A DNA stretch of 15,615 nt, taken from NCBI GenBank assembly GCA_964450845.1, contig CAYVGZ010000037.1, forward strand, positions 1 to 15,615, written 5' to 3'. The notes beneath the pieces are model-generated. The model was not told the DNA's origin, made no database searches, and saw only the letters and a program-made list of their open reading frames with translations. This DNA comes from an uncultured Candidatus Bathyarchaeia archaeon. Lineage in GTDB: Archaea > Thermoproteota > Bathyarchaeia > Bathyarchaeales > Bathycorpusculaceae. Shown in pieces: positions 1,254 to 8,808 of this stretch (positions are counted from its first letter, which is position 1; each line of letters starts with the position of its first letter). The position numbers and the translations under genes are program-made.

Positions 1254-2156
1254 ATGAAAGCGAAAAATAAAGATGAAACCGAAAAGTTTGCTCAAAATAA
1301 AAGACTGACATATGCTGTTATTGCAATTATAACAATAATAATTCTGGCGAGCATTTTTTTCTATTTTCGTCTTAATCAACCAGGTCAACCTAAAGCAGCA
1401 ATAATAGATCAGTTAAGCAGTTCATACTTAGGGCCTATCCGTCACCTAAACGAAGCTTTCATAAATACCACGAAAGAACTGCTATACAAACGTTTTTCAA
1501 TAATCGACTACTATTCAGACAATGCTACTGTAGAACAGTATAAACGGTTATCCTCCCAAAATTATAAACTGATAATTTGGAGAGCACATTCAGCATTAGA
1601 CCTAAATTCAAAATACATCGCAATCTCTACATCTGATAAGTATGGTTTGAAGAATTACGACCAGTATTTGGAAAATGGGCAACTCACTGTATGTAACATA
1701 AGTGGCTATTACTATTTTGGAATAACCCCCAAATTCGTTGAGGAGCTTATGAGCGGAAGATTTGAAGACACTGTGATTATTTTTATGAGTTGCAATGGAT
1801 TAAATCAGAGTTATTCTAAGACTGCAGAGACCTTTGAAGAGAAAGGCGTAAAGGTGTTTATAAGCTGGGATGGCTGGATTGACCCATCAGACAACGACAA
1901 TGCAATCGCTCGTCTACTTGATTACTTGATTAACAAAAACGATACCATCAGCGAAGCCGTAGACAAGATAGATATAATCTATTCACCAGAATTCGGACGG
2001 AGCGAATTAAAATATCATCCAGATTCAGACCCTGAAGTCGCAAACTATTGCATACCGGATTACAGACAAAACAATGTGTCAAGCAATGTGGGATTTATTG
2101 TATTAGCAGTTATAAGGAAAGATTTAGATGCGTGTTGGACTGGGGTGGCTTGTTAA
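1254..2156 (+). CDS. Membrane-anchored hypothetical protein, possible clan CD (caspase/gingipain-like) fold
   Basis: 300-aa ORF (ATG 1254; GTG 1251 alternative). N-terminal basic stretch plus one TM helix (LTYAVIAIITIIILASIFFYF). Strand-His motif LIIWRAHS (His 1587-1589) and strand-Cys motif VIIFMSCNG (Cys 1791-1793). Confidence 0.8.
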   Translation: MKAKNKDETEKFAQNKRLTYAVIAIITIIILASIFFYFRLNQPGQPKAAIIDQLSSSYLGPIRHLNEAFINTTKELLYKRFSIIDYYSDNATVEQYKRLSSQNYKLIIWRAHSALDLNSKYIAISTSDKYGLKNYDQYLENGQLTVCNISGYYYFGITPKFVEELMSGRFEDTVIIFMSCNGLNQSYSKTAETFEEKGVKVFISWDGWIDPSDNDNAIARLLDYLINKNDTISEAVDKIDIIYSPEFGRSELKYHPDSDPEVANYCIPDYRQNNVSSNVGFIVLAVIRKDLDACWTGVAC

Positions 2157-2468
2157 ACGCTTAAATCGTCTAGAGACGATTACATTTAGTTGGTTGCGAA
2201 GAGCATCGCCTGTCAAATTAAATTTTTGCAGTTTCTTCATCTCTAACGCCAATTCTTCATCTTGTAAAACTTCATTCACCCATTTTTCAAAGTCTCCACG
2301 ATAAAGGTGAAACTCTAGGGATTTCACGTTTATTCCGTTTATTTTATCCATAAATTCCTTCAATGATGATGCACTTTCGCCAGTGTAATTTCCAATCGAT
2401 GTGAAGAAATAGAATGCTTTCTCGCGTGGAACGATTCTTAAAATTTTTGAAATTGTATCGTGACTCAT
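2124..2468 (-). CDS. DUF5752-family protein
   Basis: 114 aa; AFYFFTSIG..SLKEF..SLEFHLYRGDFEKWVNEVLQDEELA matches the DUF5752 pattern as recalled. Starts 1 nt after the lrp stop. Confidence 0.8.
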   Translation of the reverse strand: MSHDTISKILRIVPREKAFYFFTSIGNYTGESASSLKEFMDKINGINVKSLEFHLYRGDFEKWVNEVLQDEELALEMKKLQKFNLTGDALRNQLNVIVSRRFKRLTSHPSPTRI

Positions 2469-2469
2469 A

Positions 2470-3003
2470 CTATTTCTCTCCCTTTATATTATGTGTTTCT
2501 TTTATAAATGTTAACTTTTTCGGGTTATTGACTATTGCATGTTGTGTTTCTTTAAATTTCTTCGTCAATATCGACGTACGAATCCTCAAAACACCAGGCA
2601 AGGGAGCAACTGAATTAGCGATAAATGTGTGCAAGCTTTCCTGATTTTCTGCAGCGACTTTTGCAATTATTTGAAGTTCTTCTGACAGTGATGTGTAAAC
2701 TTCTAGGACTTGTGGTGCCGAGCTGAGGGTTTCTGCAACTTTCTCGCTTTCTTTAGGGTCTGTGAAAACAGTCATTATGGCGGTTATGCGTTTGGTTCCA
2801 GCCTTTTCAGCATCTATCAAAGCTGTATATTTCTTGATTATTCCATTCTGCTCCATTCTTTTTATTCTGTCGTAAACTGTTGAGTGGGCTATTCCCAAAA
2901 GCTTACCTATAGCCATGTAAGTCTGCCTAGAATCTTCCTGCAAAGCCTCCAAAATTTCTAAATCTGTGTCATCTAAGATTACGGTGTTGTTTTTGAGCTT
3001 CAA
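2470..3003 (-). CDS. Lrp/AsnC-family transcriptional regulator
   Basis: HTH LDDTDLEILEALQEDSRQTYMAIGKLLGIAHSTVYDRIKRMEQNGII followed by a RAM domain. Start placed at TTG 3003 behind a GGGGAGAGG RBS rather than the track's 3096. Confidence 0.92.
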   Translation of the reverse strand: MKLKNNTVILDDTDLEILEALQEDSRQTYMAIGKLLGIAHSTVYDRIKRMEQNGIIKKYTALIDAEKAGTKRITAIMTVFTDPKESEKVAETLSSAPQVLEVYTSLSEELQIIAKVAAENQESLHTFIANSVAPLPGVLRIRTSILTKKFKETQHAIVNNPKKLTFIKETHNIKGEK

Positions 3004-3279
3004 TGCTGCCTCTCCCCTTTCAATATGAAGGGGTGCGTGTTTAAATTTATTGTTTGCTGTCGGAAAAATGTAGAAATTCTTCTCTTTTTTCTTCAAATTT
3101 TCTTTCTTCAGCTTTTCCGTAAATTCGTCAGTAAAAAGGCTAATTGCCTACAAATTTTCAACTGAAACAATATTTATCCTACATTTTTGCGAAGAAGCTG
3201 ACAAATAAGTTTAAATTTGTGGCTGACTAAATAGAATACTGTTCTAGAAGATTCTAACATAAAAAGTTGTGATGAAAAG

Positions 3280-3777
3280 ATGAAAATGCCTAGAGTTTGG
3301 GAAATTCTCAAAAAATTTAAGGACGCTTGTAGGGTTCGCGGTTGGAAGACTTCTGAAAGCGAAGATTGGATTGAAATTAATGATGAATATAACAGTTTTC
3401 TGTGGGCTAGAGATATTCATCCCTCTTCCTTTAAAAGAATAGTTTCAAATCGAAAGTGTGTTGTTCGAGAAGGTTTATCTTATCGTGTTGTTGATGCAGC
3501 GTATACTGCATGGTTGTTCTCAGAGGCACCTTCAGACATCCTTGTTAAAACAGTTTTTGAAAATCCAGCCTTTTCTGAGAGAATAGCCCTATATGACCTA
3601 AGCCCCTTGTTAGAAGGAAAAAATCTGTGCGTTAAACTAAATCACACGAACAGCCCTGTTTTCCAAGAGTTTGAACGTTTTCTCCAAAATGAGCTAAAAG
3701 TCAAATTTAAGCCTCTTCCGTCCTTTTCTAATGCGGAATTGCCTGAGAAAAATTACACTATTGAAGAACTAGCTTAG
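3280..3777 (+). CDS. Hypothetical protein
   Basis: 165-aa ORF with normal globular composition, divergent from lrp; no recognisable motif. Confidence 0.8.
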   Translation: MKMPRVWEILKKFKDACRVRGWKTSESEDWIEINDEYNSFLWARDIHPSSFKRIVSNRKCVVREGLSYRVVDAAYTAWLFSEAPSDILVKTVFENPAFSERIALYDLSPLLEGKNLCVKLNHTNSPVFQEFERFLQNELKVKFKPLPSFSNAELPEKNYTIEELA

Positions 3778-3844: not shown

Positions 3845-4447
3845 ATGTCTCAGGATTCTGAAAAAATAAAGAGGCTTGTCTCGTTCAAGCAGAAACTTGA
3901 AAAAAGGGTTGGAGCGCTGGAATCTGAACTCAAAGACATTCAAGCTACAATTGATGCGTTAAACTTTATACTATTGGAAAAAGGGTTTAAACGTGCAGAA
4001 ATAACAAAATCACCTGCTGAAATAGAGGCTCCGCTGCCAAAAGAAGAGGTTACGGTTGAGCCTTCTCCTCCTCTGCCTCAGGCAGAATATGAAAACGTTA
4101 CTCCATTAAAGACTGTTACGGGCGAGCTTCTTGCGACTCTTCATGTAAGTGAAGATTCATTGCGGGTGGTGCTAGCGGAAGATAAAAACTTTAATGTTAA
4201 CACGCCGCCTTTCACCCCTTTTCTAGTAGAAAGAGTTTTTGCAAAAATGCAGGAAAAAGACAACGAACTAGCGAGAACCGAGCAAATGGCTCCAGAAAAA
4301 ATTTTCTGTTATAACATTGTTAAAGACGGTGACGTAATTCGTGAAATAACAATTAAGCATGTTGACCAAGACCGTTTGAGGGAGCTTAAATCAAGCATCC
4401 GTTGGACATTGGAGAAAATGTATGAGAAAATGAAAAGTCAAAGTTAA
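3845..4447 (+). CDS. Hypothetical protein with N-terminal coiled coil and Pro/Glu-rich linker
   Basis: 200 aa: heptad-like N-terminus (LVSFKQKLEKRVGALESELKDIQATIDAL), linker EAPLPKEEVTVEPSPPLP, globular C-terminus with NTPPF and W-x-LEKM. Confidence 0.82.
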   Translation: MSQDSEKIKRLVSFKQKLEKRVGALESELKDIQATIDALNFILLEKGFKRAEITKSPAEIEAPLPKEEVTVEPSPPLPQAEYENVTPLKTVTGELLATLHVSEDSLRVVLAEDKNFNVNTPPFTPFLVERVFAKMQEKDNELARTEQMAPEKIFCYNIVKDGDVIREITIKHVDQDRLRELKSSIRWTLEKMYEKMKSQS

Positions 4448-4455
4448 AGGCAACT

Positions 4456-5025
4456 TTATTTGCGGTCGAAGTAGATGTTTTTGCCTTTTGCGGACATTGG
4501 GATTCCCAGGATGACTGTTGCTTCTGGCATCAATTTTAGTTTTAATGCTGCTGTACCAACACGATACATTATACGGTTGTCAACGTTCAAAATGTTTGCT
4601 GTTTTTGCGGCTGATCCTAAAGCTATTCCAAGGTCTAAGGCTTTAAAAATGCATGTTGAGCCAGAAAAGTCTTGTCCAAACTTTTTCTCTGCTTCTTCAA
4701 ACTCTTTACAGCTTTTGTAGCCGCATGCTCCACAGTTTAATCCAAAACTTTTGTTCCCTCTGACTCCAATCAGAATGAGTGCTTCTGAATCTCTGACGTT
4801 TTTTGCATCCCTTTTAAAGCCCTCTATTTTTCGCTCCTCTGCTATTTCCTCCATTTTCTTGGCAATGACATTTTTCTCTTTGCCATAAACGATTATTGTT
4901 AGAACGTCGTCTACGCCGCCTGATTTTGGAGCTGTCCTCGCTGCTATCAACATGAGTTTAGCTGCTTCCAAAATCGCATCTCTTTCTCCATTTTTGCTTT
5001 CAATTATCGGTGGGCTCAAATTCAT
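4456..5025 (-). CDS. DUF2148 / ferredoxin-domain-containing protein
   Basis: ARTAPKSGG N-terminal motif, Cys cluster CGACGYKSC...C, and DLGIALGSA..VDNRIMYRVG..LGIPMS..GKNIYFDR typical of this family. ATG 5025 (GTG 5028 alternative). Confidence 0.88.
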   Translation of the reverse strand: MNLSPPIIESKNGERDAILEAAKLMLIAARTAPKSGGVDDVLTIIVYGKEKNVIAKKMEEIAEERKIEGFKRDAKNVRDSEALILIGVRGNKSFGLNCGACGYKSCKEFEEAEKKFGQDFSGSTCIFKALDLGIALGSAAKTANILNVDNRIMYRVGTAALKLKLMPEATVILGIPMSAKGKNIYFDRK

Positions 5026-5104
5026 CACTCACACTAAATCATGAAGTTGAGTTTACAACCGAAATTATGGGGAGTTAGTTTAAGAGCTTTAGGCTTTTAC
5101 GGTG

Positions 5105-5230
5105 TTAAAAACTTTCTTTCAGCAGTTCCACAATAGCGTTTAACTGACCTGTGTATAAGCCTACAGCTAGGGCGGAGACGCCTAAAAGAAGTATTAATGC
5201 GCCTATTATTCTACGTTCTGGAATATCCAT
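5105..5230 (-). CDS. Small single-TM membrane protein, 41 aa (not in ORF track)
   Basis: Translates as MDIPERRIIGALILLLGVSALAVGLYTGQLNAIVELLKESF*. ATG is 12 nt after the trxA stop, with AGGA upstream; one clean hydrophobic helix. Confidence 0.7.
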   Translation of the reverse strand: MDIPERRIIGALILLLGVSALAVGLYTGQLNAIVELLKESF

Positions 5231-5242
5231 TTTTTTTATTCC

Positions 5243-5677
5243 TTATCCTAAGTGTTTTTTTAAGATTGATTCGATGTGGTTTTTTGGGCAAAGTCCGATT
5301 ATTCTGTCAACTTCTTTTCCATTCTTTATTATCAGCATAGTGGGGATGCTAAAAATCTGGAAGCTTTCAGCGGTTCTTGGGTTCTCGTCAACATTAAGCT
5401 TACCTACAAACACTTCTCCAGCATATTTTTCTGTCAACTCCTCAATTGTCGGGGCTAAAGCTAGACATGGACTGCACCAAGGCGCCCAACAATCAATCAA
5501 GGCTAGCGAATGCTGATTGACTGTTTCGTTAAAATTTGAATCTGTTACATGAACTGGTTCCGTTGTCATTTCCTGCTTTCTCTCCTTCAGCTCTATAAGT
5601 TCCCTAATTTTCTTTTCTCTGGTATGCTTCAGTTCTCTGTTTCCCTTTAATATAAAGTGTTCGTGTTCGTCATTCAT
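5243..5677 (-). CDS. trxA: Thioredoxin
   Basis: DCWAPWCSPC active site, VFVGKLNVDENP, FQIFSIPTMLIIKNGKEVDRIIG; charged N-terminal extension. Confidence 0.93.
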   Translation of the reverse strand: MNDEHEHFILKGNRELKHTREKKIRELIELKERKQEMTTEPVHVTDSNFNETVNQHSLALIDCWAPWCSPCLALAPTIEELTEKYAGEVFVGKLNVDENPRTAESFQIFSIPTMLIIKNGKEVDRIIGLCPKNHIESILKKHLG

Positions 5678-5683
5678 TTGGTT

Positions 5684-6136
5684 TCATCTGCGTTGTTTTA
5701 AAGAGTTCTGTAGAGCCTTAAGTTTTCTGTAAGCTTCCTTTGGGTCTGAAATTTCTTTCGCTAGTTTTTCAAAGGGGCAAATTCCCTTTTCATCAGTCGC
5801 AAGTATGTTTTCGACTAAATTCTTCCATTCATGATAAACTGCGTGTTTTTCAAATACACTTTTCGCTTCTTTGCTTAGGGTTACTGCATAAACTTTTTCA
5901 ACTTCTGCGTAAACGCATAACAGCGCAATTGCTTTTCCAACGACCCTATCGGCAACTGAAGACCCCTCAAGTTTGCTTCCAAGCTTTTCAATAGCTTCTA
6001 AAAAGCCAGAAATCCCATGGGAAGCATCCTCAAAAATCACTTCACCATCTTTAAGTATAGAAAGTGTTAGGCTTTTTTCAAGAAGGCGTTTTTTGGCTGC
6101 TTGTAAATTCTGCATGTCTATTTCAATTGGCAACAA
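5684..6136 (-). CDS. DUF1893 (TM1506-like) protein
   Basis: VADRVVGKAIALL..YA..LS..A and CPFEK motifs of DUF1893. Start could instead be ATG 6115. Confidence 0.87.
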   Translation of the reverse strand: MLPIEIDMQNLQAAKKRLLEKSLTLSILKDGEVIFEDASHGISGFLEAIEKLGSKLEGSSVADRVVGKAIALLCVYAEVEKVYAVTLSKEAKSVFEKHAVYHEWKNLVENILATDEKGICPFEKLAKEISDPKEAYRKLKALQNSLKQRR

Positions 6137-6156
6137 TGAAGCTGCTAAAATATTTA

Positions 6157-6600
6157 TTACTTTTCTATCTTAAAAAGATGGTTTTGCGGCATGCGGGCAA
6201 TTTTCCGTGCAAGCTCTTCATTCGTTAAGCCTTTAGACATTTCGCTCATTAACTCCTTTATTATCTTTGGATTAACTGATACCCTCGTAACTCTATTCAA
6301 ATTTTGCAGTTCGAAATGGGCTGTTATTTCCTTTTTCGAGTTTTCTATTCTTAGTTTTTGATTTCCAATAGTACATTGAGTTGCAGTTTGGATTCCGTCA
6401 AGAATACACGAAAAAGGCGTCAAAAGTGGAACTTTGACGGTTGCCTGTAATCTCTTATCTTCTTTAATGTTTGGTTTTAGAATTCTTTTAGCTATGATTC
6501 CCATTCTAACTCCAATGACTAAAAAAGGACCCAAATGTCCATGAAACTCTGCAGCTTTCTCTATCAGAGTCATTGGCTCTGCGTTGAGTTTGGATTTCAT
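6157..6600 (-). CDS. FmdE-family (formylmethanofuran dehydrogenase subunit E-like) metal-binding protein
   Basis: FHGHLGPFLVIGVRMG and CILDGIQTATQCTIGNQKL signature motifs; 147 aa; no C-terminal zinc finger. Confidence 0.9.
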   Translation of the reverse strand: MKSKLNAEPMTLIEKAAEFHGHLGPFLVIGVRMGIIAKRILKPNIKEDKRLQATVKVPLLTPFSCILDGIQTATQCTIGNQKLRIENSKKEITAHFELQNLNRVTRVSVNPKIIKELMSEMSKGLTNEELARKIARMPQNHLFKIEK

Positions 6601-6613
6601 GTTTTCACTTTTT

Positions 6614-7159
6614 TTACATCTTTTGCAAACTGATTCTGGTTGAGAGTGCTTTTATCAGCACAAGACCGACAGTGCCTCCAATAGCACCGCCTATGACATG
6701 TAATACTACGAAGAGAGTTATGCCTCCAAAATTTGTCATTAGAAAATTTGTGCTCGTGAAAAGATATCCTATTATCACACCAGCAACCGCTGTGGAAGCT
6801 AAGGATGTGAAAAATACGCTTATCATCTTCAGTACTGATTTCTCTGGAGAATTTTGGTTTCCCAAGAGTCTCGTGAGAACGTCGAAGACTATGCTTGCGG
6901 CTGTGAAGCCGAAGAAATGGGTTGCATTTGGGTTAAGCATTAAAGTTATGATTGTGGCAATTATTCCTGTCGTGGTTATCGCTCCAAATTTTCTTACCCA
7001 CCACATGACCAAAATTATCAAAATGATGCCTGTCATGTCGCAGAAGAATGGTAGGTGAGTGGCTGTCCAAAAGACTGGTGTAAAGTATGCACTAAGTACG
7101 CCCCATAAGGCGGCACACATGGCTATTGCGGTAATGTCTCGAGTTGTGAAGTAGAACAT
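6614..7159 (-). CDS. Integral membrane protein, ECF transporter S-component-like
   Basis: 181 aa, about 5-6 hydrophobic helices. The N-terminus FTTRDITAIAMCAALW carries the helix-1 AxxxA motif of S-components. AAGGTG RBS upstream of ATG 7159. Confidence 0.72.
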   Translation of the reverse strand: MFYFTTRDITAIAMCAALWGVLSAYFTPVFWTATHLPFFCDMTGIILIILVMWWVRKFGAITTTGIIATIITLMLNPNATHFFGFTAASIVFDVLTRLLGNQNSPEKSVLKMISVFFTSLASTAVAGVIIGYLFTSTNFLMTNFGGITLFVVLHVIGGAIGGTVGLVLIKALSTRISLQKM

Positions 7160-7189
7160 GGTAACACCTTTTTGTCAGTTAGTGTTACC
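7160..7189. promoter_or_regulatory. Perfect palindromic operator GGTAACAC-N14-GTGTTACC, putative NikR site
   Basis: Arms 7160-7167 and 7182-7189 are exact reverse complements. The core GTAACA-N16-TGTTAC has the spacing of the E. coli NikR operator GTATGA-N16-TCATAC. It lies between the TATA box and the ATG; nikR is nearby. Confidence 0.75.
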
Positions 7190-7247: not shown

Positions 7248-8213
7248 TTAGATGAATTTGCCTACTAACAGTGTAATGGACATTATGCTGTAAGTTTGTG
7301 TAATAAGCATGATCCATTGTGGATTGTGTGCAGACAAGCTTACAATCTGTTCCGCAATAGAGCTTTCATGCTTTGAAGCTACATATTCTAAAGAAAGAGA
7401 GTAAAGCTTCTTGAATTTTATCATAACGAAAAAGACAACAACAGGTATAGCGAATAAGAAAACACTGGACAATGGATGTGGACCATAAGCCATTTCAAAA
7501 AAGAACGCTGTGACTGTAAGTGTGGCGCCAATGGCAAGTAACATTATGCTAAGAAAAGAGGCTTTGACTAGACCTAAATGCACAGTCATTGTTTCAATCC
7601 CCATCGCCTTGTCTCCGAAATAGTCTCGAATCTCTGTTGGTACAATTACTCCATAGATTGTCAAAGCTAATCCAGTAAGGGATATAATAAATAGAAGATT
7701 CATTTCAGATGCAAAAGTGTAATAGGCAAATAACACAGGAAAAACTCCAAGCACGAGAATTAATGAAACTGGAGCTAACCAGTACCTAGACTTTAATCTA
7801 AGTGGGGCAGCAGAATAGCAATATCCCAAAGAAATTCCAATAATCCACATAAATAAGAGGATAGGCTTTCCAAGGATGAGCATAAATAGAGAAACCAGAA
7901 CAAGAGTGACAATAAACTCGATAATCAACAATTTTTTGAGTCGATCTTGTCCAAGAGAATTCATTGCCACAACAAGTTGCTTTTTGCGCTCATCTTTTGA
8001 GTCAAGCTCATAATCAGAAAGAGTGTTGACCAGAGCTCCGATGGCTGAGCTTAAGTTTATTATAGTGAATGATAGAGCCACTAGAACAATTAAATCCATG
8101 AAATCTATGTACGGAGTAACACCCCAGGCAAGTCCCATAATAAGTGAACCCAAATTCGGCAGAAGAAACTCTGCCCTAGAAACAGTAGCAAGCAACTTCA
8201 CAGTTTTGACCAT
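7248..8213 (-). CDS. UbiA-family prenyltransferase
   Basis: 321 aa, multiple TM helices, Asp-rich motifs NTLSDYELDSKD and EIRDYFGDKAMGIETMTVHLG, plus YSAAPLRLK. Subfamily (MenA-like vs DGGGP synthase) not resolved. Confidence 0.9.
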   Translation of the reverse strand: MVKTVKLLATVSRAEFLLPNLGSLIMGLAWGVTPYIDFMDLIVLVALSFTIINLSSAIGALVNTLSDYELDSKDERKKQLVVAMNSLGQDRLKKLLIIEFIVTLVLVSLFMLILGKPILLFMWIIGISLGYCYSAAPLRLKSRYWLAPVSLILVLGVFPVLFAYYTFASEMNLLFIISLTGLALTIYGVIVPTEIRDYFGDKAMGIETMTVHLGLVKASFLSIMLLAIGATLTVTAFFFEMAYGPHPLSSVFLFAIPVVVFFVMIKFKKLYSLSLEYVASKHESSIAEQIVSLSAHNPQWIMLITQTYSIMSITLLVGKFI

Positions 8214-8353: not shown

Positions 8354-8400
8354 AGAACAAAAGTTTTATGACAAATTTCTCTATTTACAATGGGAGATTT

Positions 8401-8808
8401 ATGACCAAAATAGTTCGAGTAGGAGTAACATTTCCTCCAGACCTGCTTAAGGATTTTGACAAGTTAATTAGCAGAATCGGCTACGAAAACCGTTCCAAAG
8501 CCATCCAAGACGCAGTTAGAATGTTCGTGTCCGAGAAAAAATGGCTCCATAAAGAAAAAGGGATACAAACTGGAGTTTTGATGTTGCTCTACGACCATGA
8601 AGTAAAAGGACTGGGAAATGAGTTGACAGACATTCAACACCACTACACTCACATAATCTGTTCAACCATGCACATCCACTTAAGCGAACGTGACTGCCTA
8701 GAAGCCATAGCCATAAAAGGCGAAGCCGCCGAAGTTCGAAAACTAAGCAACGAATTATCTGCAAAAAAAGGAGTAAAAACTCTCAAAACAATGGTTATTT
8801 CAATATAA
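8401..8808 (+). CDS. nikR: Nickel-responsive ribbon-helix-helix regulator NikR
   Basis: RHH N-terminus VRVGVTFPPDLLKDFD...GYENRSKAIQDAVR. Ni ligands H80/H91/H93/C99 (IQHHY...MHIHLSERDCLE) have the E. coli H76/H87/H89/C95 spacing. Start placed at ATG 8401, not 8368. Confidence 0.95.
   Translation: MTKIVRVGVTFPPDLLKDFDKLISRIGYENRSKAIQDAVRMFVSEKKWLHKEKGIQTGVLMLLYDHEVKGLGNELTDIQHHYTHIICSTMHIHLSERDCLEAIAIKGEAAEVRKLSNELSAKKGVKTLKTMVISI

Follow-up and report, generated by a model that had tools for sequence, protein, structure and literature searches.

The window analysed here, a stretch of 15,615 nucleotides (nt), corresponds to contig C37 in an assembly from Bathyarchaeia (1.64 Mb in 120 contigs, 93.5% complete), and our subject is a candidate nickel uptake operon of six minus-strand open reading frames (ORFs) that run head to tail from 7159 to 4456. 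The first gene (6614–7159) encodes a membrane protein of 181 residues, hereafter S181, which has the predicted fold of an energy-coupling factor (ECF) S-component and belongs to no Pfam or NCBIfam family. After a gap of 13 nt comes a single-domain FmdE-like protein of 147 residues (6157–6600) with the signature HGHxGP...CxxDG (PF02663, E = 2e-23, 83.3 bits against a cut-off of 22.9). A gap of 20 nt, which presupposes a TTG start, separates this from a member of the DUF1893/TM1506 family (150 residues, deaminase-like fold, 5684–6136; PF08973, E = 1e-31, 109.3 bits against a cut-off of 27), and a further 6 nt from a thioredoxin of 144 residues with the active site WCSPC (5243–5677; PF00085, E = 4e-28; TIGR01068, 111.1 bits against a cut-off of 96.8). 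The fifth gene, 12 nt on, encodes a single-pass membrane microprotein of 41 residues (5105–5230), an ORF conserved in relatives, and the last a DUF2148 protein of 190 residues (4456–5028; PF09918, E = 6e-32, 109.9 bits against a cut-off of 25). This final protein carries a CxxCx4C...C iron–sulphur motif (C99, C102, C107 and C126) and also matches PF04060 (FeS). The original prediction, made from the letters of the window, had described six co-oriented genes over this range, and every ORF was recovered at those coordinates; its first four gaps stand, and the fifth, given as 79 nt by counting from an ATG at 5025, is 76 nt when DUF2148 starts at the GTG at 5028. Profile searches agree with it that the window holds no CbiM/NikM, NikABCDE, EcfT or EcfA gene. 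Directly upstream of S181 lies the palindrome GGTAACAC-N14-GTGTTACC (7160–7189), a candidate operator with perfect 8-nt arms, and further out, on the plus strand, is nikR (8368–8808).

The sequence of S181 gave no match in Pfam (E ≤0.01) or NCBIfam (E 0.1), bar one chance-level match to an antiporter. An AlphaFold (AF2) model built from 26 homologues scored 92.1 in the predicted local distance difference test (pLDDT) and 0.88 in predicted template modelling (pTM), and consists of six long helices and one short one. When this model was searched against 48,161 chains with VIA-align, a method independent of Foldseek, the top 14 matches were all ECF S-components, with Z scores from 17.2 to 9.9 (5EDL 17.2, RibU 13.8, ThiT 12.0, BioY 11.3, PanT 11.1, FolT 10.4, NikM 10.0, BtuM 9.9); CbiM scored 7.7, and unrelated chains start at 7.3. 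The top Foldseek matches were likewise S-components. Identity to the solved chains is 10–18%, and an alignment profile of the family run against the sequences of solved structures returned chance-level matches only (E ≥0.5). We assign S181 to the S-component fold because only S-components rank at the top, with a clear gap to unrelated chains. Judged by the model, it is an S-component of no described family, with a fold nearer to that of the vitamin-type subunits than to that of NikM/CbiM. The latter are defined by a metal-binding Met-His N-terminus on an extra first helix; S181 starts MFYFTTRD and has neither. An S-component of a non-NikM type was what the original prediction had proposed, and in this it is supported: the fold is that of an S-component, there is no match to PF01891 or to a vitamin family, and the profile search of 6614–7159 that it recommended gave no match to the known S families in Pfam and NCBIfam.

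A large protein collection holds 316 homologues of S181, most of them bathyarchaeial and none with a name other than 'hypothetical', and when 1.8 billion cluster representatives were searched exhaustively with a profile, only 119 matched; the named distant members come from assemblies of Nitrososphaeria and Culexarchaeia/Verstraetearchaeota. These distant members reach Trep_Strep (PF09605) below threshold only, and in the ESM Atlas the clusters of MptD/Trep_Strep and ABC_cobalt are the nearest named ones (scores 0.91 and 0.90), so both signals point weakly towards the Trep_Strep/MptD S-components. Trep_Strep/MptD and ABC_cobalt (PF09605 and PF09819) are putative S-components and the nearest relatives of the family at the level of sequence; unlike it, they are mainly bacterial, and the S181 of the window itself does not match them at E ≤0.01. 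Four polar positions within the helices are near-invariant in the family, namely C/H40, D41, D93 and H154. Position 40 is Cys except in three distant members, which have His, and it looks ligand-like since such a swap is the pattern expected of a metal ligand. By helix order, C40, D41 and H154 would fall in the outer half of the membrane, the region of substrate binding in S-components. Helix 1 carries the small-residue motif A13-x3-A17, a candidate for the AxxxA docking motif of S-components, in which A17 is nearly invariant and A13 the majority residue. The literature we searched contained no description of the S181 family or of a link between NikR and FmdE.

The region upstream of S181 is 88 nt long and holds a TATA-like element, TTTTTATC, identified by inspection on the minus strand (7205–7198), followed after 8 nt by the palindrome (7189–7160), which directly abuts the ATG of S181 and overlaps the ribosome-binding site AGGTG. 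From the position of the TATA-like box, transcription would be expected to start within the operator spacer. Within the palindrome, half-sites of the type GTAACAC/GTGTTAC at N14 span 7161–7188. The number of such sites expected in the shuffled window is 0.00, and GGTAACAC-N14-GTGTTACC is the sole perfect site in the 1.64-Mb genome. The predicted NikR signal GTGTTAC-[N13/14]-GTAACAC precedes nik(MN)QO operons in delta-proteobacteria (Rodionov et al. 2004, PMC545781), and a reversed form, GTAACAC-[N13]-GTGTTAC, has been reported in Desulfotalea (PMC545781); the operator of the window is the reversed form with N14. Sites of this kind share with those regulons the half-sites, the 13/14-nt spacing, the use of both orientations and a place before nickel uptake genes; the difference is in the targets, which here are archaeal: an S-like gene of no described family and FmdE-like genes.

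Our comparison covered 80 loci that encode an S181 homologue, each from a different species; their labels are Bathyarchaeia, Brockarchaeota, Thermofilales, Nitrososphaerota and other Thermoproteota. In 55 of them the 110 nt upstream of the S181 homologue hold a site at N14 that departs from GTRTTAC/GTAAYAC by one mismatch at most, and the remaining 754 kb of these loci contain just five more, three before FmdE genes (L015, L016) and two at the head of longer CbiM-first operons that run into S181 (L010, L063). A separate calibration made use of six Bathyarchaeia genomes that each have two CbiM-type operons (L089–L102). In all six, the palindrome stands just upstream of exactly one of the two operons and the other has none, the split that would be expected of a nickel and a cobalt system. 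The NikR of the window (PF08753, E = 3e-27; NF002169, 148 bits) is the only one in its genome and aligns to P. horikoshii NikR (2BJ1, E = 1e-27). It keeps the residues aligned with the conserved His...HxH...Cys of the solved NikR structures (P. horikoshii, Helicobacter pylori), which we take to be the four high-affinity nickel ligands. A nikR gene adjoins the S181 homologue in 30 of the 80 loci, mostly divergently. On these comparisons the palindrome is a predicted NikR-type operator, and repression fits because it stands between the TATA-like box and the ATG. The original prediction had set the genes behind a NikR palindrome, and this reading has gained in strength: the site is perfect, agrees with the published signal, is kept upstream of homologues in many lineages and also precedes NikM-type genes.

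An FmdE-like gene directly follows S181 in about 43 of the 80 loci, and coupled expression is suggested because the two genes often overlap or sit 1 nt apart. The solved FmdE proteins 2GLZ and 2GVI bind Zn, 2GLZ as a Zn/Ni mixture, through His15, His17 and Cys19 of an FHGHxC motif together with Cys55, and most members of the family adjoin metal-ion transporters (PMC2954224). The FmdE-like protein of the window aligns to both structures across the metal site. Among 47 FmdE proteins linked to S181, H20, G21, H22, C65, D68 and G69 are invariant and G24 and P25 are kept in 46; H20, H22 and C65 correspond to Zn/Ni ligands of 2GLZ. In 46 of the 47, Gly (Gly24 here) stands in place of the FHGHxC Cys, so that three of the four ligands remain and, with the motif Cys replaced, one coordination position would be open. 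We suggest that a three-ligand site with one free position suits a protein that takes up metal and passes it on, and that the FmdE-like protein is a probable cytoplasmic metal-binding partner of S181. Metal binding through His/His/Cys in the vicinity of transporters, given in the original prediction as known for FmdE-like proteins, is in keeping with a neighbour that is widely conserved and in which these three residues do not vary. Alongside the likeness to 2GLZ and 2GVI, the partner differs from the solved FmdE proteins in having Gly for the motif Cys, in lacking a zinc-finger domain and in having no link to formylmethanofuran dehydrogenase.

The same genome contains a second, near-perfect candidate NikR site, GTAACAC-N14-GTAATAC (C59:7410–7437), behind a TATA-like box. 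It is followed by an FmdE protein of 231 residues with a C4 zinc finger and then by an ECF-S-like gene cut by the contig end (C59:7410–8694; L108:2411–3695). The product of the latter gives weak matches to Trep_Strep and ABC_cobalt and a 92.8% hhalign probability to the S181 family, and it is without the Cys-Asp motif. As this contig repeats the pairing, FmdE with an S-like protein behind a NikR-type site occurs twice in the genome. In 16 of the 80 loci S181 is followed by an S-adenosylmethionine (SAM) methyltransferase. This is a class I enzyme of about 200 residues that replaces FmdE (L026, L033, L034, L039, L041, L042, L046, L048, L052, L054 and others), sometimes with radical-SAM genes or a CooC/MinD-like ATPase (L054) after it.

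The genome has a need for nickel, with three genes for [NiFe]-hydrogenase large subunits and one of carbon monoxide dehydrogenase (CODH) type. No CbiM/NikM (PF01891), NiCoT or HupE/UreJ was found in it, an absence of nickel permeases that is not proven because the assembly is 93.5% complete. The sole match to the peptide/nickel-family binding proteins (PF00496; C34:9431–10561) has an in-frame TAG inside the match and may be a broken gene or two genes. One EcfA–EcfA'–EcfT cluster is present, on contig C4, and consists of a CbiQ-family T gene and two ATP-binding cassette (ABC) ATPase genes with no S gene beside them; the EcfT stretches ...KARG... and ...ESRAWG... can be read as the Ala-Arg-Gly signatures of a T-component. 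At least five further S-like genes are scattered over the genome. A shared module with scattered S genes is the group II layout, and the cluster on C4 agrees with the prediction of a T/A module encoded elsewhere.

Our favoured explanation, to which we give a probability of roughly 55%, is that the operon encodes an undescribed, NikR-repressed ECF S-component that takes up Ni2+ and delivers it to the FmdE-like protein. It brings together what the analysis shows, namely an S-component fold, a conserved match to the NikR signal, syntenic neighbours, residues that do not vary and a nickel demand for which no classical permease was found. What it infers from these, on the cargo, on repression by NikR, on the partnership with EcfT, on the transfer of metal and on the accessory proteins, would be as follows. 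Nickel-loaded NikR would occupy 7160–7189, downstream of the TATA-like box and ahead of the start codon, and so block transcription. S181 would be the substrate-capture subunit of an ECF-type ABC importer, docking on the single shared EcfA–EcfA'–EcfT module encoded on the other contig, toppling, and carrying Ni2+ across the membrane; the candidate nickel ligands are Cys/His40, Asp41 and His154, all in the outer halves of their helices. In the cytoplasm the FmdE-like protein, with its His-x-His...Cys site and open coordination position, would take the ion, and the accessory DUF1893, thioredoxin, 41-residue and DUF2148 proteins would probably keep thiol ligands reduced or couple delivery to redox.

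Several observations weigh against this explanation. With one mismatch allowed, the operator occurs twice genome-wide against 0–4 times in shuffled sequence, which is no excess; weight can be given only to the perfect site and to the positions in promoters. Some archaeal NikR homologues are suspected of sensing other metals (PMC3087415). The genome does encode one peptide/nickel-family binding protein. EcfT is present in 196 of 201 genomes surveyed across the class, which makes its co-occurrence with S181 uninformative. CbiM lies just before S181 in two of the 80 loci (L010, L063) and also in G147 (L088), so that in three relatives NikMN shares an operon with the S-like gene; the order in G147 is nadA, nikR, palindrome, nikM, PDGLE (NikN-like), S181-like, FmdE, DUF1893, thioredoxin, 41-residue ORF and DUF2148, and this is the one checked case of a PDGLE/NikN-like gene beside NikM. 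Among the 201 genomes S181 occurs in 46 and CbiM in 56, with both in 11 where about 13 would be expected by chance. Finally, in L037 and L061 the genes divergent from the S-like gene encode a ChlI/D-like chelatase together with a BtuFCD-type ABC system, neighbours that hint at cobalt or a tetrapyrrole. In these two loci (L037:894–5860; L061:893–5862) the AAA+/VWA chelatase and BtuF/FecCD-type ABC genes share the operator-bearing intergenic region with S181–FmdE.

The occurrence of NikM and S181 in one operon in three relatives, together with a co-occurrence near chance, excludes a simple replacement of NikM, and we have rejected the idea that S181 is an exclusive alternative to it. The non-NikM character of S181 thus stands in so far as it is no member of the NikM/CbiM family and falls in so far as it implied a plain NikM substitute. 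S181 would be an uptake route added beside NikMN, not only a substitute for it, and a different substrate is possible.

This leads to the alternative that survives best, which we nevertheless regard as unlikely: the S-like protein would import Co2+, a Ni or Co chelate or a metal-tetrapyrrole, its Cys would be an axial ligand, and the FmdE-like protein and redox genes would process the cargo. BtuM, a solitary S-like transporter of cobalamin, uses a Cys as axial ligand and is among the structural matches of S181 (Z 9.9). On the other side, the exchange of Cys for His at position 40, with the invariant Asp and His, fits a site for a bare ion. NikMN, a known nickel S-unit, in the same operon would argue against a redundant second nickel importer, but organisms commonly run two nickel uptake systems under NikR. 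A cargo in need of processing would make the thioredoxin and the iron–sulphur protein easier to explain, and the chelatase and BtuFCD-type genes of L037 and L061 would fit it too. Against this, the operator is of NikR type, is common to NikM-type operons and is missing from the second CbiM operon of the same genomes, and in the NikR of the window the positions that match the conserved His and Cys of the solved proteins are unchanged.

Import of Ni2+ through the shared module also has to be set against the idea, which we consider decidedly improbable, that S181 works without any ECF module, as a solitary metal facilitator or channel or as a membrane dock for the FmdE-like protein. Some S-like proteins do act alone, BtuM and some BioY among them; most loci have no linked T or A gene, and the near-universal EcfT gives no statistical help. 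However, the closest structural relatives of S181 are module-dependent S-components, its first helix has the A13-x3-A17 motif, and a shared module without a neighbouring S gene is the classic group II arrangement. In L020, genes for a fused A–A' ATPase and two CbiQ-like proteins lie upstream, separated from the S-like gene by others, and this is the only locus in which two neighbouring genes were confirmed as CbiQ-family. A neighbour cluster, 'ABC2', which had been considered as a dedicated ECF module, proved to be a mix of unrelated ABC systems. The weakest alternative, an operon for nickel sensing, buffering or detoxification with NikR as activator or anti-repressor at the operator, has a precedent in that NikR activates some genes in Helicobacter pylori, and thioredoxin and iron–sulphur proteins would suit a stress response, but it is very improbable given an operator in the position of a repressor site between TATA-like box and start codon, the same operator before NikM-type uptake genes, and ECF transporters that are importers.

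Beyond S181 and FmdE, conservation of the operon narrows. The full set S181–FmdE–DUF1893–thioredoxin–41-residue ORF–(DUF2148) is present in L002–L012 and in two more genera of the same family (G129 and G147) with a diverged S181 (30–33% identity). DUF1893 is in the operon in 10 close loci and in L088 and L107, and it directly follows S181 in four distant loci; D63 and a CPFE motif are conserved in it. The one published lead on the DUF1893 family is the suggestion of an NAD/ADP-ribose-binding regulator of membrane transport, with links in bacteria to a '5TM' protein and TonB receptors (PMC3239186), which fits the pairing with S181 and does not explain it. The thioredoxin has an N-terminal extension of 40 residues (5558–5677; EHE..FI..EEL.RI.EKK...) that is conserved in most relatives. 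The 41-residue ORF is a real gene, since it is intact and of the same length and position after the thioredoxin gene in all 12 relatives that have the thioredoxin, from several genera. DUF2148 is present in L002–L005, L010, L011, L088 and L107 and absent from L006–L009, which makes it, on gene order, a facultative last gene. The neighbourhood conservation that the original prediction wished to see exists for S181–FmdE, which are widely syntenic; the four accessory genes belong to the operon only in this one family of Bathyarchaeia. Of the outcomes that it had named as telling against it, those open to computation, membership of a vitamin-specific family with no link to nikR and a cluster without synteny elsewhere, were not found.

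Between nikR and the operon lies a gene for a UbiA-family prenyltransferase (7248–8213, minus strand). We rejected it as a member of the regulon, as the operator lies downstream of it and a homologue occurs near S181 in just 1 of the 80 loci; with so few, a local insertion seems likely. Relatives have nikR immediately beside the S-like gene, or NikMN in the slot that UbiA fills here. On the far side of the operon, two genes without a Pfam family (3280–3777 and 3845–4447) keep their place beside it in L002–L010, and an Lrp/AsnC regulator and a DUF5752 gene (2124–3096) turn up again close to S181 in 15 and 11 of the 80 loci, respectively. Elsewhere the neighbours of S181 are metal-related, which speaks for the favoured explanation: apart from NikMN, they include FeoB–DtxR (about 12 loci), permeases and ATPases of Opp/Nik type immediately upstream in L025, and an ABC-3 system downstream in L036.

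Set against known systems, S181 resembles the group II S-components (YkoE/5EDL, RibU, ThiT, BioY, PanT, FolT) in its size of about 180 residues, its six-helix fold (Z 17.2–10.4), a gene that stands apart from the shared EcfAA'T and a small-residue motif in helix 1 with a possible part in docking. Unlike those proteins, whose cargo is vitamins or their precursors, it matches no sequence family, is predicted to be controlled by a metal repressor and has a probable metal-binding protein of the cytoplasm as its partner. With NikM/CbiM of the NikMNQO and CbiMNQO systems it shares the predicted role of an S-type subunit behind a NikR operator, the same operator preceding NikM-type genes in related genomes. 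It differs from them in Z scores of only 10.0 and 7.7, in the absence of a PF01891 match and of the extra N-terminal helix (it begins MFYF), and in having no NikN partner in this genome, while three relatives encode both in one operon. We tentatively put forward, as a possibility that we would not favour over its negation, that this is a fourth archaeal nickel uptake family. Its S-component would be of group II type, with a Cys/His-Asp-His site in the membrane for bare Ni2+ and no NikM-like N-terminus, and would transfer the ion directly to a three-ligand FmdE acceptor, with the accessory genes forming a new redox-linked metal-delivery module. In that case S181 would be the first S-component for metal ions outside NikM/CbiM, and single-domain FmdE proteins would have their first function.

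[NiFe]-hydrogenases and CODH are enzymes on which Bathyarchaeia and related uncultured archaea depend, yet many of these archaea are without classical nickel transporters; if our explanation is true, a widespread uptake route in these lineages gains a name. The palindrome itself offers a simple means of telling NikM from CbiM in Bathyarchaeia. Transport of metal ions by ECF S-components would extend past the NikM/CbiM type, and the FmdE family, which has solved structures and a long-noted, unexplained link to metal transporters, would gain a testable role. The same reading gives functional leads for DUF1893, DUF2148 and the conserved 41-residue membrane protein.

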